Positions 24,879 to 30,608 of a stretch of DNA of 64,000 nt are shown in pieces (the first letter of the stretch is position 1; every line of letters starts with the position of its first letter). Source of the stretch: Ectobacillus sp. (lineage in GTDB: Bacteria; Bacillota; Bacilli; Bacillales; Bacillaceae_G); assembly GCA_048976805.1 (NCBI GenBank), contig JBHGUR010000035.1:5069-69068 (forward strand), read 5' to 3'. The notes below the pieces were generated by a model. The model ran no database searches, was not told where the DNA came from, and worked only from the letters and a program-made list of their open reading frames with translations. Both the position numbers and the translations under genes were made by a program.

Positions 24879-25275
24879 ATGTTGCGAATAAAGAAAGCCG
24901 GGCGTTTTTTTATCGTGTTTTTGATATTTGCTACATTTGCCGGAGGAAGGTACATATATTCATCTGGAAAACAAATAGAAAAGAACGATCCTGAACCGGA
25001 AATTACTTTGACAAGTGAAACTAAATTATCCAACACGATGATAAAAGATCCCAATCCATCCCCTGAAGAACCTGATAAAGTGTTGATTGAAGGTGTTCCT
25101 CATATTCAACAATTCCCTGAATTGCCGCGAGGATGCGAAGTTACCAGTTTGGCTATGATTATGCAATATGCAGGTGTTTCTATCGATAAAATGACTCTTG
25201 CAGAAGAGGTTGCAACAGTTCCTTTTCTTGATCAAAACGGAGTGCGGGAGTGCGAGGGAATCCAAATGACGGGTT
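24879..25275 (+). pseudogene. C39-like peptidase (YvpB-like), frameshifted and truncated
   Basis: LPRGCEVTSLAM motif. An 8-bp tandem duplication GGAGTGCG (25239-25254) shifts the frame before RGNPNDGF, and similarity then ends. Confidence 0.75.
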
Positions 25276-25654
25276 TGAGTACCTTTCCAGCAGTGTGGCG
25301 GGATTGGCAACAATTGAACAGGGCATCATCCGTCTATATATGATTGGTAAGACAAACAGACTGTTGACAAATCTGCAGAATCTAAACGCTTTAAGACAGC
25401 ACCTACCCTGGGCAAAAAATTTGAGCAGTACGAGATTCCTCTACATGCCAATCCAGCTAACGAAGACAATAATAAAGGAAGCAAGATAATGCCAAGGTAG
25501 GCACTCAAATTGTGAAAGTTGTAGTTGATATGGCAGCTCTTTTTATCGGTTTAATAAATAGCATTACTGCTGCTTTATCTTTTTTCGCTACATAGATAGG
25601 CGTTTGCTGCCAATGCCTTCACCAATCTAATTTGTTCTGAACGAAATATGTACT

Positions 25655-26218
25655 TTAAATTGGCCATATATCATGGAACCGTTCTTTAGCATAGCCAGCA
25701 ATCACCCATACAAGTAAAGCGTCTTTGCGCTTTGCACCAGAATCGCGCATTTGTAAAACCAGATGTTCAATGCGGATTACTTGAATTGGTTTAGAAAAAT
25801 GCTCGTTGATAAAAGCTTGCTGGTCTCTCTCGTCTGAAAGAAAATAGGGAATTCCCATCGTATGAGCATAGGCAATAGAGACAATTTCACCCCAATGACT
25901 TCCGTTTTCACGAGTGCCTTTTTCTCTTCGAAGTTTCTCAATGGTGTCTTCGTAGAGTATATAATGGAGTGAGCTTTGTTGTTGAAGAGCAGCAGTCGTA
26001 ACAATCTCGGCTCGACCTTTTTGGATCAGCACATCTATTTGCTCTTTTGCTTCCCTTGGTGTTAGAACTTCGTGATTGTATACATACTCATGAATCAGCA
26101 GCAGTCCTACATAGTGGGGTAAAATATCCTCAATAACTCTATATTTCCTTAGTCTCCCTAGCTTAATTGCAAAATCAGCATCCAAAATGGCGGTTTCCCA
26201 TATATAAGATTCAGTCAT
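25655..26218 (-). CDS. PIN-domain protein (DUF3368/VapC-like), putative toxin
   Basis: ILDAD after beta1, HEVL, GEIVSIAYA, FLSDERD acidic motifs; start overlaps the upstream stop. Confidence 0.65.
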   Translation of the reverse strand: MTESYIWETAILDADFAIKLGRLRKYRVIEDILPHYVGLLLIHEYVYNHEVLTPREAKEQIDVLIQKGRAEIVTTAALQQQSSLHYILYEDTIEKLRREKGTRENGSHWGEIVSIAYAHTMGIPYFLSDERDQQAFINEHFSKPIQVIRIEHLVLQMRDSGAKRKDALLVWVIAGYAKERFHDIWPI

Positions 26219-27029
26219 GTTCTTCCTCCAACAGCCGGTCAATTTCTTCTTCTGTCGACAGACTGTCCGGTGTAACGATGCCAAAGTCTTCGGGTTTTCG
26301 GTGCACGAGTCCAAGAAGATTTTGTAGGTGTTTAGGAGAAATTTGCCCGTGCTTATATAAGGAAAGGGCATGTTCCACTAATCCCTCATAGTGAACCAAC
26401 GGTTGTGCCTCTGCAGGCTCATCCAACTGGAGTGTTTTACGAATCAATGAGATATTTGAAATTTCCCATAACTGTTTTGCCGCATCCTTGTCAATGTAGC
26501 CAATTTCAAACAAGCGACGAACCATAGACTTGTAAGGGACTTGAAAAATGGTTGCTAACTCTACAACGTGGAAACTCGAGATAGTCCCAGAAGGAGCCGC
26601 AAGAAAGAGAAGCTCTTGCTCCAATACGTGCTTTGGCACAAGAAACATCGCAGCAAACAAATTTGCACGGAGTTCTCGTGTATTGTCTGTCTCATCCTCC
26701 AAGGTATCATTTCTTAGTAACTCGGGATGATTCAGATATTCTTTATCGAACCAAATGTGGTACAGCTCATGCGCTGCTGCAAAATATTGCTTCTCTTTTG
26801 GGATTTGGCTGTTGATGTAAACAAAAAGACGATTCTTCTTATGGCACACGAATGCGCACAGATTTTCATCTTGAAAAGGCGCTTGTAAAAGAGTAGCCTC
26901 TCTCTTTACAATTCTAAGTACATCTTTGCCAAGAATGCGAGAAGACTTATGCAGCTCGCTTAGCTTACTATTGGCTTTTGCCTCAATGTCCTGCATTTCT
27001 GTTCCAGAGAGAAGCGGAAGGAAGGTCAT
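26211..27029 (-). CDS. ImmA/IrrE-family Zn metallopeptidase
   Basis: FAAAHELYH (HExxH), ELRANLFAAMFLVP, FQVPYKSMVRRL motifs. Confidence 0.9.
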   Translation of the reverse strand: MTFLPLLSGTEMQDIEAKANSKLSELHKSSRILGKDVLRIVKREATLLQAPFQDENLCAFVCHKKNRLFVYINSQIPKEKQYFAAAHELYHIWFDKEYLNHPELLRNDTLEDETDNTRELRANLFAAMFLVPKHVLEQELLFLAAPSGTISSFHVVELATIFQVPYKSMVRRLFEIGYIDKDAAKQLWEISNISLIRKTLQLDEPAEAQPLVHYEGLVEHALSLYKHGQISPKHLQNLLGLVHRKPEDFGIVTPDSLSTEEEIDRLLEEEHD

Positions 27030-27391
27030 AATCGCTCCTCCTTTAACTTTTCAGACAATTCCTCTAACTCAATAAGTTGCTCCATAACAAAGTCTAAGTA
27101 TTGTAGATGCTGCCGAATGTCTGGATTGTCTGTGCTCTCCATCATAAAGAGGATGGGATCTTCAATGACAGTCGCCTTTGGAACACGCTGAATGAGATCA
27201 TCAACTTTCGTATTCATGATTTCAGCAATCCTTTGAATTTCTCCGATATTTGTTGCTTTCTTGCCGTTCACAATTTTGCTCATGACCTGCTTGGATACAC
27301 CTAAGCGCTCAGCAAATTCAACTTGACTCATATTATGGGCTTTAAGAAATTGTGCGATTTTGTCTCCAATCTCTTCAAAGATTGTTTTCAT
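27026..27391 (-). CDS. XRE-family HTH regulator
   Basis: MSQVEFAERLGVSKQVMSKIVNGK; AAGGAGG RBS; ATGA overlap with the peptidase gene. Confidence 0.9.
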   Translation of the reverse strand: MKTIFEEIGDKIAQFLKAHNMSQVEFAERLGVSKQVMSKIVNGKKATNIGEIQRIAEIMNTKVDDLIQRVPKATVIEDPILFMMESTDNPDIRQHLQYLDFVMEQLIELEELSEKLKEERL

Positions 27392-27412
27392 GTAAAACGC
27401 CTCCTTGTATTC

Positions 27413-27442
27413 AGTGTACGGTAATTCCTTTGATTGTGTCAA
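27413..27442 (-). promoter_or_regulatory. sigma-A-like promoter for the XRE-peptidase-PIN operon
   Basis: TTGACA-N18-TACACT immediately upstream of the RBS. Confidence 0.5.
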
Positions 27443-27512
27443 CAAATCGTGTACGATAAAGTTTGTATAAGTAAATAAATTATTGTCGAAAGGATATGTT
27501 TATATAATATAA

Positions 27513-27600
27513 ATAAAATCTCTTAGCAGCAAGGCAGAAGAGGCATTAGCGGACAACGATAAAGAAAGTAGTATCAAGAAATGGCAAGATATGTTTGGCC
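27513..27600 (+). pseudogene. putative CD-NTase (CBASS cyclase) C-terminal remnant
   Basis: IKSLSSKAEEALADNDKESSIKKWQDMFG resembles the terminal A..A...KW..(I/M)FG helices of CD-NTases; short, and recognised from memory. Confidence 0.5.
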
Positions 27601-28225
27601 CTTGCTGCTGGAATTGGTGCTGCAGAGATCGCAGATTTGTATTCACAGCAAACAAAAAGGATATTTGGTAAGAAGCGCGCTCTGTTTGGTATACGAAAAT
27701 CCAAGTACTCAAACGAACCCTTACAGCAGTTTCTTTTCGAAAAATTCGGGGGAAAGAGAATTACTGAGTCAAATGTCATGCTGTGCATCCCATCTATTGA
27801 GCATAGCAAAGCCGAACCAAAAGTATATAAGACACCGCACCATAAAGAATATATTATTGATGGTCAGAGGTATATGGGGGAGGCTGCTTTAGCCACTTCC
27901 GCAGCTCCAACTTTCTTTCCACCTGCAATGGTTGGCTAAGATCGATGGCGGACTGTGGGCAAACAATCCTGTCCTAGTAGGGATTGCAGAAGCAATTAAA
28001 CTAGGTTATCTGCTCTATCAGATTGAAGTGTTGTCCTTAGGAACAGGTGAACCAGTTTATTTTAATAAAAAAGGGCATCCGTTAGCAGGCGGCTTAATGC
28101 AATGGATGAACAATCTAATTGATCTTGCTTTTCAATCACAATCAAAAGGGTCGTTGACTTCGCTTGACGCTGCAAGGTCTGATCTTGTGCGGCATATGGT
28201 ATATGACATATATATAGCATGGCTT
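27595..28225 (+). pseudogene. patatin-like phospholipase (CapV-like), N-terminus deleted and frameshifted
   Basis: LALAAGIGAAEIADLY, SKYSNEPL, ATSAAPTFFP, then DGGLWANNP and VLSLGTG in another frame; the GxSxG nucleophile is missing. Confidence 0.8.
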
Positions 28226-28844
28226 GGACGCGTTCCAACAGCAAAATTCAGCTATTTCACAATCTTTTCGTTATGGTCAACTTTTATATCAACACCACCA
28301 CATGGGAGAGGGGAGAACCCGCGTCACTGCTGCTCCTTATTTAGGAAAAATCTAGTTAACATAATATATATTATACTAAGTTGTTTAGGGATAAAAAAAT
28401 ATGTATCAATAGTAAAGTTAACTTTGTTTTTTGAGATGGTTTGGGGATTTCAAGGTGCAATGATATATTATTTAGATTAAGACTTCTGAATAATAAATCG
28501 TCTACAAACTCATTTACAAAAAAAATCATTCAAAGCCGCATCATCACAGCTTGTTAACGACCTCGTTTTCATCCGAATCTCTAAAAATATATCGATAAAA
28601 TATATTTATGATAAAACCCCGTGTTTTTTTGCATTTTTATCATTTTTAATTATATTAGAATATCAATATACCCAATCAATAGGTACATCAAAAAACCGCA
28701 ACATATACGTTGCGGTCATCCTTTTTCCCCATATATCGCTCCTTTCTTTTTCTCTTTTATATATAAAGGATCCACACTAATCCTTAGCTGCTCCGCGATA
28801 ACCAACCCTTCCCTCCTTTTTTACGAATATATGCAAGATCGCCT

Positions 28845-29540
28845 CTAAGCGCAAGGCTCCGCTCTTGGAAGCGGGAATAACTGATCACCTGGACCTAAAA
28901 AGCGCCATGCATTCGGAGATGTCCAAACGGCTGCTTCGAATGGCCTCATCTTCAACAGCCTCATATTCCCCCTATTGAGATTTGCTTTTGGTGTACGGGA
29001 GTTATGCACAATTGCTGTGTGCCCCAGCACATTGTTTCTTACTTCAGGGTATCGAACAATCTTTCGGCTCCCTTGTTTTTCTGCTTGTCCTGCTGTTTTT
29101 GGAACAATGAACAAGGTATACTCAACCGCTTTCATTTTTTCTATCTTTTTGCGTCTCGCCTTTCTTCTGCCAGCTGCGGTCTCTTTTTCTTTTTGGACTA
29201 ACACATACTCATAGCCATATACTGTTTCTCTTTTAGCAATAAAAATCGAATTTGTAATTTTATATTCCTGTTCTTCAGTTGTTGCAGGGAATCTTAGCTT
29301 ATATTGAACTACATTTGCCCCCGCCTGTTTAGTTGTATAGTTGAGTCGAAGGATAGAGCTTTCATGCACAAAATGGAAGTCATACAGTTTTCCTTGTTCA
29401 TCTAATTGAATGCATAAGGTTAAGCCTTTTCTCCCTTTCTTTCGGGGTAAAATTGCCCTTTGCCGATTTTTTTTGATTCCGGAAAAGTTGACTAAGATGC
29501 AATTATGGCCTTCAATCGATGACAACTCCGCAAATCTCAT
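28845..29540 (-). CDS. hypothetical basic protein
   Basis: 231-codon ORF with GGAAGGGG RBS; no motif recognised. Confidence 0.6.
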   Translation of the reverse strand: MRFAELSSIEGHNCILVNFSGIKKNRQRAILPRKKGRKGLTLCIQLDEQGKLYDFHFVHESSILRLNYTTKQAGANVVQYKLRFPATTEEQEYKITNSIFIAKRETVYGYEYVLVQKEKETAAGRRKARRKKIEKMKAVEYTLFIVPKTAGQAEKQGSRKIVRYPEVRNNVLGHTAIVHNSRTPKANLNRGNMRLLKMRPFEAAVWTSPNAWRFLGPGDQLFPLPRAEPCA

Positions 29541-29812: not shown

Positions 29813-30451
29813 TTAAGATTCTAATGAGGATAAAGCATCCATATTGCTCGCAATCATGGCAATAATCGTGCTTGCTTCTTCTTTGCTGAAAATAAAATTC
29901 GATTCATCTTCAATCACTTCATCATCTGCCGCCATAATGCGGTTTACCCGGCGCAAAATGCCATCGCCTGTCTCCTCGACAATTCCAAATTGATAAGTAA
30001 TTTCGACCTCATCTCCTTGCGCATACGCTGTCACTTTAGGAGTTGTCCATTCAACGTCGATTTCTTCATACACATCATCTTCTTCAAAGCATTCATGCTC
30101 TTCATCATCGCTTATGTCATACACATCTTCATCATCGTCCTCATTTATATAGCTGTGAAAGCTTTCGTGAACTGCATCCACAATATCTTCAATATCGGTA
30201 AAAATCGTTCTGGAAGTTTGGTCAAAATCTAAGTCAATCGATTCTATGTAAAATTCTCCATTGTACGGATCGAAAAACAAGGTACAAAAATATTCTCGAA
30301 TGTTATCGTCCGTTTCAATGAAAAATTCGATTCGTGGATGCTTTGCTCCTCTATCAATCGACATATGGCCAACTTGATCATATTTTTCACAAATGGATTC
30401 TAGATGGTCTTGCAGCTCTCCTGTTACACGATCAAACCATTCTAATAACAT
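29813..30451 (-). CDS. highly acidic hypothetical protein
   Basis: ORF; ATG at 30451 after AAGGAAGGG; D/E-rich linker. Confidence 0.7.
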   Translation of the reverse strand: MLLEWFDRVTGELQDHLESICEKYDQVGHMSIDRGAKHPRIEFFIETDDNIREYFCTLFFDPYNGEFYIESIDLDFDQTSRTIFTDIEDIVDAVHESFHSYINEDDDEDVYDISDDEEHECFEEDDVYEEIDVEWTTPKVTAYAQGDEVEITYQFGIVEETGDGILRRVNRIMAADDEVIEDESNFIFSKEEASTIIAMIASNMDALSSLES

Positions 30452-30608
30452 ACAGGTATCCCTTCCTTTCAAGGTTGTCGCCTTTATTATTTCCAACTGC
30501 ACCATTTTGAGCCACCAAATATAGCAAGAGCATATGCAATAATCTAGGAAAGCTCACCTGCATTTGCATATAATACTCTATCCGTTTTTAATACAAAGGA
30601 GTGTATCG

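Follow-up and report, generated by a model that had tools for sequence, protein, structure and literature searches.

An XRE-ImmA-PIN gene cassette of the PDC-M69 family in Ectobacillus sp., a candidate protease-gated toxin module

Organization of the cassette

A 64,000-nucleotide stretch of an Ectobacillus sp. contig (JBHGUR010000035.1; hereafter the window, to which all coordinates refer unless another locus is named) carries three overlapping genes on its minus strand. The first (27026-27391) encodes a 121-amino acid XRE-family helix-turn-helix (HTH) protein (P0003), the second (26211-27029) a 272-amino acid zinc metallopeptidase of the ImmA/IrrE family (M78, COG2856; P0002) and the third (25655-26218) a 187-amino acid protein (P0001) that is a PIN-like, VapC-fold and DUF3368-related predicted nuclease and the putative effector or toxin. 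The ATG of the ImmA gene overlaps the XRE stop codon as ATGA, the ImmA stop codon and the start of the third gene share an 8-nt overlap (ATGACTGA), and a GGAGG-type ribosome-binding site lies upstream of each of the three starts. A longer, 238-amino acid reading of the third open reading frame (ORF) is not supported; all homologues start at the 187-amino acid position. A sequence-only reading of this DNA had described three intact, overlapping genes with a promoter of their own between broken neighbours, the HTH and the peptidase being separate proteins; the ORFs, a promoter scan and profile searches of the flanks agree with that description. The C-terminal end of the peptidase likewise reads ...ALSLYKHGQISPKHLQNLLGLV..., as had been stated.

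A sigma-70-type promoter (27413-27442, minus strand) lies upstream of the XRE gene, with its -35 element (TTGACA) at 27442-27437 and its -10 element (TACACT) at 27418-27413, separated by an 18-nt spacer. It matches 10 of the 12 consensus positions and is the top-scoring promoter-like site of the region, and both hexamers and the ribosome-binding site are kept in the copy of the cassette found in Ectobacillus funiculus (L001). A repeat search of the same interval returned a direct repeat, GTGTACG(G/A)TAA, present twice, 35 bp apart (27414-27459, no strand assigned); one copy overlaps the -10 element, the other is just upstream of the -35 element, and the TCGTA(C/A)AC core of the repeat is partly kept in L001. 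We infer that this repeat is a candidate XRE operator.

The limits of the cassette were set by DNA homology with the E. funiculus copy, which is 73% identical over 1848 nt, from exactly 27490 to 25649, and has unrelated flanks. The conserved unit (25649-27490, minus strand) therefore comprises the promoter and the three genes in ~1.8 kb. Four other genomes share a homologous stretch that opens at the XRE ATG (27391) and closes within ~100 nt of the PIN stop codon, at 25657-25757. The edges of the cassette are sharp, and its flanks differ from genome to genome. A search for target-site duplications and terminal repeats around the cassette found only short repeats at chance level, and there is no compositional anomaly at the cassette. 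Relative to the E. funiculus copy all three genes are under purifying selection (nonsynonymous divergence, pN, 0.11-0.15; synonymous divergence, pS, 0.70-0.81; pN/pS ~0.13-0.19), with synonymous sites close to saturation.

Family assignment, distribution and gene linkage

The three proteins were compared with the profile hidden Markov models (HMMs) of PADLOC-DB. The XRE protein matches PDC-M69A (E 1.2e-41, profile positions 1-112 of 113), ImmA matches PDC-M69B (E 9.9e-100, positions 3-272 of 272) and the third protein matches PDC-M69C (E 5.5e-68, positions 2-186 of 188). By these profile matches the triad is a member of the PDC-M69 family: three co-oriented, overlapping genes match components A, B and C in order and over their full length. 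Guilt-by-embedding gave rise to 145 untested phage defence candidates, among them PDC-M69 (Payne et al. 2024, 10.1101/2024.01.29.577857), and supplement file 8 of that study carries the entry 'Assign as candidate PDC-M69'.

A pattern-based scan of GTDB species representatives returned 11 loci, nine with the XRE, ImmA and PIN genes in the same order and two degraded. A tenth intact copy lies beside recombinase genes on pFN9A, a 110-kb plasmid of Lysinibacillus capsici. Of 30 relatives of the window genome, a single one, the same-genus genome with the E. funiculus copy, has the triad.

The linkage of the genes extends to distant relatives. All five distant members of the PIN family that were looked up, at 20-30% identity, have an M78 peptidase gene directly upstream; it is preceded by an HTH_3 gene in two and by a small ORF without a Pfam match in two, and in one (L020) the HTH and M78 parts are fused in a single protein of 386 amino acids. 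The fused protein aligns to P0003 with 44% identity over the HTH and to P0002 with 28% identity over residues 32-251, including a C-terminal PE(E/D)(Y/F)GI motif. Among the computational evidence for joint action of the three proteins, this conserved linkage and the gene fusion are the strongest. A distant triad (L019, 5483-6388; P0146) is located directly upstream of an AbiEii-family toxin gene, a further neighbour of the toxin-antitoxin or abortive-infection type.

The XRE protein and a candidate cleavage motif

The XRE protein contains a Pfam HTH_3 domain (E 2.4e-12, residues 12-66). Beyond it lies the motif P-I-L-F-M-M (residues 78-83; ILFMME in the window), which is conserved in 11 orthologues as P-[IV]-L-[FM]-[MF]-M at a fixed position ~12 residues past the HTH and is followed by a conserved C-terminal amphipathic helix. 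A fused HTH-M78 protein from other Bacilli (L034, described below) has TFLFRADNP at the same place after its HTH.

Two characterized systems are cut at a comparable point. CapP cuts CapH at F82|R83 under stimulation by single-stranded DNA (ssDNA) (10.1101/2022.04.27.489752), and ssDNA causes VapB52 to cleave itself at a conserved 'FR' linker motif (F75-R76), which frees the tRNase VapC52 (PMC13273310). LF|MM (residues 80-83) resembles both sites and is a candidate site for cleavage by ImmA. The ImmR repressor of ICEBs1 is cut at F95|M96. The XRE protein is a predicted protease substrate and probably an antitoxin.

The ImmA peptidase

ImmA contains a Pfam Peptidase_M78 domain (E 3.4e-13) with HELYH at residues 87-91; H87, E88 and H91 are invariant, and E119 nearly so, among 28 homologues. 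The AlphaFold2 (AF2) model has a predicted local distance difference test score (pLDDT) of 88, and its structural matches in Foldseek are IrrE (3dti), PprI (8sln), CapP (7t5t) and PrpR-type regulators of Mycobacterium tuberculosis, in alignments of ~175 columns. A profile search of PDB sequences returned the same proteins and also a 393-amino acid 'HTH cro/C1-type domain-containing protein' (9vzy), which matched about as strongly as IrrE and CapP and which may be VapB52.

The model is all-helical beyond residue 73 and so lacks a beta-rich GAF domain. There is also no cysteine-switch loop, because no cysteine lies between H91 and E119; the sole cysteines, C58 and C62, precede the HExxH motif. 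The C-terminal ~70 residues are family-specific and consist of a conserved Y..G.I...L..LL....P(E/D)DFG segment and an acidic tail. The sequence-only reading had likened this end of the protein to UPF0175 antitoxins. In an hhalign comparison of the ImmA family with six UPF0175 proteins the best local alignment did fall on the named segment (residues 218-249), yet it was not significant (probability 0.6%, E 0.099, 29 columns), and the likeness is not supported.

The third protein

No Pfam or NCBIfam model matches P0001, and a search of PDB sequences with the family profile gave no match at E<=10. The AF2 model, built with 16 homologues, is of high confidence (pLDDT 90.4, predicted template modelling score 0.85), and the top Foldseek matches in the PDB are VapC PIN toxins (3zvk, 5ecw, 6ifc and 3tnd; probability 1.0, E from 4.5e-4, target-normalised template modelling (TM) score 0.53-0.62). 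Across 49 family members, down to ~20% identity, D13, D15 and G110-E111 are invariant, positions 129/130 are always (D/N)(E/D) (D129/E130 in the window protein), and at least 90% of members have H43, E50, Y89 and A118. The conserved residues occupy the sites at which established PIN topology places the four acidic residues: at the end of beta-1, past beta-2, at the N-terminus of the helix that precedes beta-4 and past beta-4.

The family was also compared with eight DUF3368/COG2405 proteins of other Bacilli, to which it aligned in hhalign with a probability of 95.3% (E 2.1e-8, 113 columns) and with the same motifs, GE...(S/T)D(D/E), in register. No Pfam model, PF11848 (DUF3368) included, matches any of the 49 members, and the relation is visible at the profile-profile level only. 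The PIN fold that had been proposed for the third protein is thus supported by its model and its nearest structures, and the label 'DUF3368-type PIN' is right at the level of the superfamily. The third protein is best described as having a modelled VapC-like PIN fold and a remote relation to DUF3368, and it is predicted to be an RNA-cutting toxin.

The PIN family is small. A library of 1.84 billion representatives yielded 167 sequences at E<=1e-3, and there are ~30 close clusters, of which those with a source name are all from Bacillaceae. Searches of 50,697 phage genomes, of IMG/VR and of PHROGs found no member of it. Related arrangements occur in other Bacilli: L033 (44-1686) has a split XRE, M78 and DUF3368-type PIN set, and L034 (21-1668) pairs a DUF3368-like PIN protein with a 374-amino acid fusion of HTH and M78 in which an FLFR motif follows the HTH. 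The DUF3368 Pfam matches in these two loci are both below the family cut-off.

Flanking genes and the CBASS remnant

The genes on either side of the cassette are broken. On the left is a truncated C39-like peptidase gene (24879-25277, plus strand; Pfam Peptidase_C39_2, E 2e-11, profile positions 2-50 of 143), which retains only residues 1-147 of its 267-285-amino acid homologues before a frame slip (tblastn). On the right, outside the cassette, is the remnant of an antiphage signalling system based on cyclic oligonucleotides (CBASS). It begins with ~30 codons from the C-terminal region of an oligonucleotide cyclase (27513-27600, plus strand; positions ~264-295 of PADLOC cyclase HMMs, E 1.9e-5), which run, near 27589-27600 and in another frame, into a broken gene for a CapV-type cGAMP-activated patatin phospholipase (27589-28150, plus strand). 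The CapV remnant matches NCBIfam NF041079 at positions 49-163 (E 5.3e-32) and 171-243 (E 3.1e-11) of 317 and a PADLOC phospholipase effector profile (E 1.4e-34); it lacks the first ~50 residues, has a frameshift near 27935 and shows nothing past profile position 243.

The CBASS remnant (27513-28150) has suffered at least four lesions: loss of ~263 N-terminal cyclase codons, an internal deletion that joins cyclase position ~295 to CapV position ~53, the frameshift near 27935 and loss of the CapV C-terminus. A simple insertion of the cassette into the cyclase gene was rejected, as the left flank is the truncated C39-like gene and not the N-terminal part of the cyclase. Only 23 nt separate the conserved end of the cassette (27490) from the cyclase fragment, of which the first ~263 codons are missing, so that a native divergent promoter arrangement no longer exists.

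Elsewhere the window consists of ordinary chromosome. Past the CBASS remnant, and before an autolysin-like gene, are two intact minus-strand ORFs (28845-29540 and 29813-30505; 231 and 230 amino acids, the second very acidic), for which Pfam, PADLOC and PHROGs gave no significant match. Just 3' of the CapV remnant there is an AT-rich element of ~90 nt (28346-28440, plus strand) that several same-order genomes conserve at 71-81% over 86-100 nt and that is intergenic in each of the four copies examined. Its core of ~30 nt, CTAGTT[TA]ACATAATATATATTAT, is 91-100% identical and is followed by a hairpin-like repeat, GTCTCAAA...TGAGAC. No Rfam family matched the element at E<=0.1; it may be a promoter or operator with a small RNA or leader.

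Defence context of related loci

The surroundings of the ten other intact triad loci were examined, a small survey. Roughly half are in defence-rich surroundings, within a few kb of defence genes, which agrees with the PADLOC classification and with the defence association that the sequence-only reading had implied for homologous triads. The clearest defence-island setting is that of Schinkia azotoformans LMG 9581 (L004, 1402-16833), in which the triad lies between a type I cas operon, divergent from it and with cas3 adjacent, and a Wadjet-like JetC/JetD cluster. The neighbours are SIR2-HerA at L011, PDC-M26 and a Mokosh-like helicase gene at L001, cas genes at L008 and DNA methyltransferases on pFN9A, and a DpdE/ZorD-like SNF2 helicase is 6 kb away at L005. 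At L002, L009 and L010 the triad is among housekeeping genes.

The same survey gave no recurrent divergent partner. CBASS adjoins none of the ten loci, and neither CapV nor a cyclase is a neighbour at any of them. The position of the cassette beside a CBASS remnant in the window is a co-location in a variable chromosomal spot, not a regulatory partnership.

A protease-gated PIN toxin module as the favoured explanation

We consider it reasonably probable that the cassette is an autonomous, three-gene, protease-gated PIN toxin module, i.e., a split form of the three-component toxin-antitoxin (TA) or defence systems that combine an HTH protein, a COG2856 peptidase and a PIN protein. The XRE protein would bind the promoter of the cassette and hold the operon at a low level, and its C-terminal extension would probably keep the PIN protein inactive as well. 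A stress or infection cue, for which analogy puts ssDNA or DNA damage first, would activate ImmA, and ImmA would cut the XRE protein in trans after the HTH, at the L-F|M-M motif (F81|M82). Cleavage would derepress the operon and free the PIN nuclease, which would then cut RNA, perhaps tRNA, and arrest or kill the cell. The analysis shows the structure of the genes, their families, fold, conserved catalytic residues and linkage, with a natural HTH-peptidase fusion, as well as the limits of the cassette and purifying selection; we infer every biochemical step of this scheme (repression, cleavage, the partner that neutralises the PIN protein, the trigger and the target). The sequence-only reading had proposed a switch that would both derepress the adjacent operon and release a PIN RNase; the repressor and protease switch that frees a PIN nuclease stands as the best reading, with VapBC52 as its characterized fused analogue, and derepression of the adjacent CBASS operon is not supported.

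Several observations count against the module as described. The partner that neutralises the PIN protein may be the C-terminal domain of ImmA in place of the XRE protein, which the analogy with VapB52 favours. No Pfam PIN model matches any of the 49 family members, and structural support for the PIN fold is moderate (Foldseek E ~5e-4, TM 0.41-0.62). ImmA has neither the GAF domain that forms the ssDNA groove of IrrE and CapP nor a cysteine-switch loop, and its trigger may therefore differ. The operator assignment rests on a single 11-nt direct repeat. PDC-M69 itself is a purely computational candidate, and its name was not mentioned in the literature searched.

A rival reading, which we think unlikely, is a selfish addiction or stress-response TA module with no anti-phage role, the loss of which kills the cell. 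A compact cassette with variable flanks, intact here between decayed neighbours, fits this reading, as do the plasmid-borne copy with adjacent recombinase genes and the three copies among housekeeping genes, and the architecture is one that has classically been predicted to be a TA system (PMC2701414, PMC5499597). However, defence genes lie no more than a few kb away at about half of the loci (L004, L011, L001, L008 and CBASS here), and PADLOC picked PDC-M69 by guilt-by-embedding (10.1101/2024.01.29.577857). Addiction and defence roles are, moreover, not mutually exclusive.

The family-specific C-terminus of ImmA allows a second alternative, in which the GAF-less peptidase is both the sensor and a second antitoxin: residues ~205-272, its helical C-terminal domain with a conserved acidic tail, would bind the PIN protein and cover its active site until a cue from the phage, other than ssDNA, activates the protease, leading to abortive infection. 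Sensing, cleavage of the repressor and release of the toxin would then be joined in one protein; we regard this reading as improbable.

Still less probable is that the XRE and ImmA proteins are a CapH/CapP-type pair that regulated the divergent CBASS operon together with the PIN gene and outlived it, a role for which the sequence-only reading had invoked CapH and CapP. The triad is divergent from the cyclase-CapV remnant, P0002 matches the PADLOC capP HMM (4.3e-13) and P0003 the capH HMM (1.1e-4), CapP (7t5t) is among the top structural matches of ImmA, and many immune operons are known to have a CapH/CapP-like pair alongside (10.1101/2022.04.27.489752). However, capP matches no more than the generic core of the peptidase (residues 57-177), against a full-length PDC-M69B match at 1e-99; neither a GAF domain nor a cysteine-switch loop is present in ImmA; and none of the ten other loci adjoins CBASS or shows a recurring divergent partner. 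As the cassette ends at 27490 and the 5'-truncated cyclase fragment 23 nt away has lost ~263 codons, the junction is a rearrangement scar and not a shared promoter region.

Finally, it is very improbable that the cassette is an ImmR/ImmA-type immunity switch that an integrative element or prophage left behind, the third gene being accessory cargo and not a toxin: the gene pair and its order are ImmR/ImmA-like, the XRE protein and the peptidase have PHROG matches and the truncated flanking genes suggest a past insertion or deletion, but neither the window nor most relatives have integrase, excisionase, transfer or phage genes next to the triad, and throughout the PIN family the third gene is kept and remains linked to the peptidase. 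A phage or prophage origin was rejected on the negative searches for the PIN family reported above.

If the mechanism is true, the cassette is a minimal and portable 1.8-kb switch that senses, cuts a repressor and releases a nuclease, and it could be used to test how IrrE/ImmA-type peptidases are activated without a GAF domain. The PADLOC candidate would become a defined system, and mycobacterial VapBC52 would be linked to a wider split-gene family in Bacillota. The occurrence of split and fused forms in one PIN family would, if the sensor/antitoxin reading is true, make a tractable model for the evolution of such switches. For annotation, the locus illustrates that an XRE-ImmA pair beside defence debris is not automatically the regulator of that system.

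Comparison with known systems

The UPF0175-DUF3368 (COG2886-COG2405) pairs share with the cassette a PIN protein, that of the cassette being remotely homologous to DUF3368, but no UPF0175 antitoxin gene is present. In ImmR/ImmA of ICEBs1, too, repressor and anti-repressor protease are separate proteins and the repressor gene comes first, and LF|MM recalls the ImmR site; the systems differ in that the cassette has no mobile-element genes to regulate, has a PIN effector attached and encodes an ImmA that is ~100 amino acids longer, with an extra helical domain.

The CapH/CapP pair has an HTH repressor, an IrrE-like peptidase fold and a phenylalanine-containing site past the HTH in common with the cassette, in which that site is a candidate and CBASS debris lies alongside. 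CapP has a peptidase-HTH-GAF architecture with an ssDNA groove between the peptidase and GAF domains, and a cysteine-switch loop is found in 33% of CapP proteins and is thus not strictly defining (10.1101/2022.04.27.489752; 10.64898/2026.05.16.725639). The cassette, in contrast, has neither a GAF domain nor the loop, has a co-transcribed PIN gene in place of a divergent immune operon and belongs to a family with no CBASS association.

VapB52-VapC52 (M. tuberculosis, NAR 2026) is the closest characterized system. VapB52 binds the PIN toxin through an N-terminal domain with an XRE-like HTH; an IrrE-like peptidase forms its middle domain, and a further domain lies at the C-terminus (PMC13273310). 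The two systems have in common a PIN toxin under an XRE-type HTH and an IrrE-like zinc peptidase, an aromatic-containing cleavage motif (a candidate in the cassette) past the HTH, a domain C-terminal to the peptidase and the lack of a GAF domain. They differ in that the HTH and peptidase of the cassette are separate, translationally coupled proteins, so that cleavage would be in trans and not self-cleavage, that the cassette ImmA has no cysteine-switch residue between HExxH and E119, and that its PIN protein is of a different, DUF3368-related family. A fused HTH-peptidase form, as in VapB52, does exist in the PIN family of the cassette (L020).

Three-component TA systems of an HTH protein, a DUF955/COG2856 peptidase and a PIN-like protein were predicted by Makarova 2009 (PMC2701414) and Matelska 2017 (PMC5499597), the PIN groups in them being COG2405, DUF4411, PIN_14, PIN_20 and PIN_26 (PMC5499597). 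The cassette has an Xre-family HTH protein, a COG2856 peptidase with an intact HExxH motif and a PIN-like protein with conserved acidic residues, i.e., the same domains, with the same co-transcription and the same predicted logic of a protease that cuts an Xre repressor or antitoxin. Its PIN protein is outside Pfam DUF3368 and DUF4411 and may belong to the small Firmicutes cluster PIN_26. PADLOC PDC-M69 is the same family, all three HMMs being matched in order, and nothing differs at the family level. With the architecture already predicted in 2009 and 2017, the exact family in PADLOC and a fused analogue characterized in 2026, the cassette is an ordinary member of a known, predicted kind.

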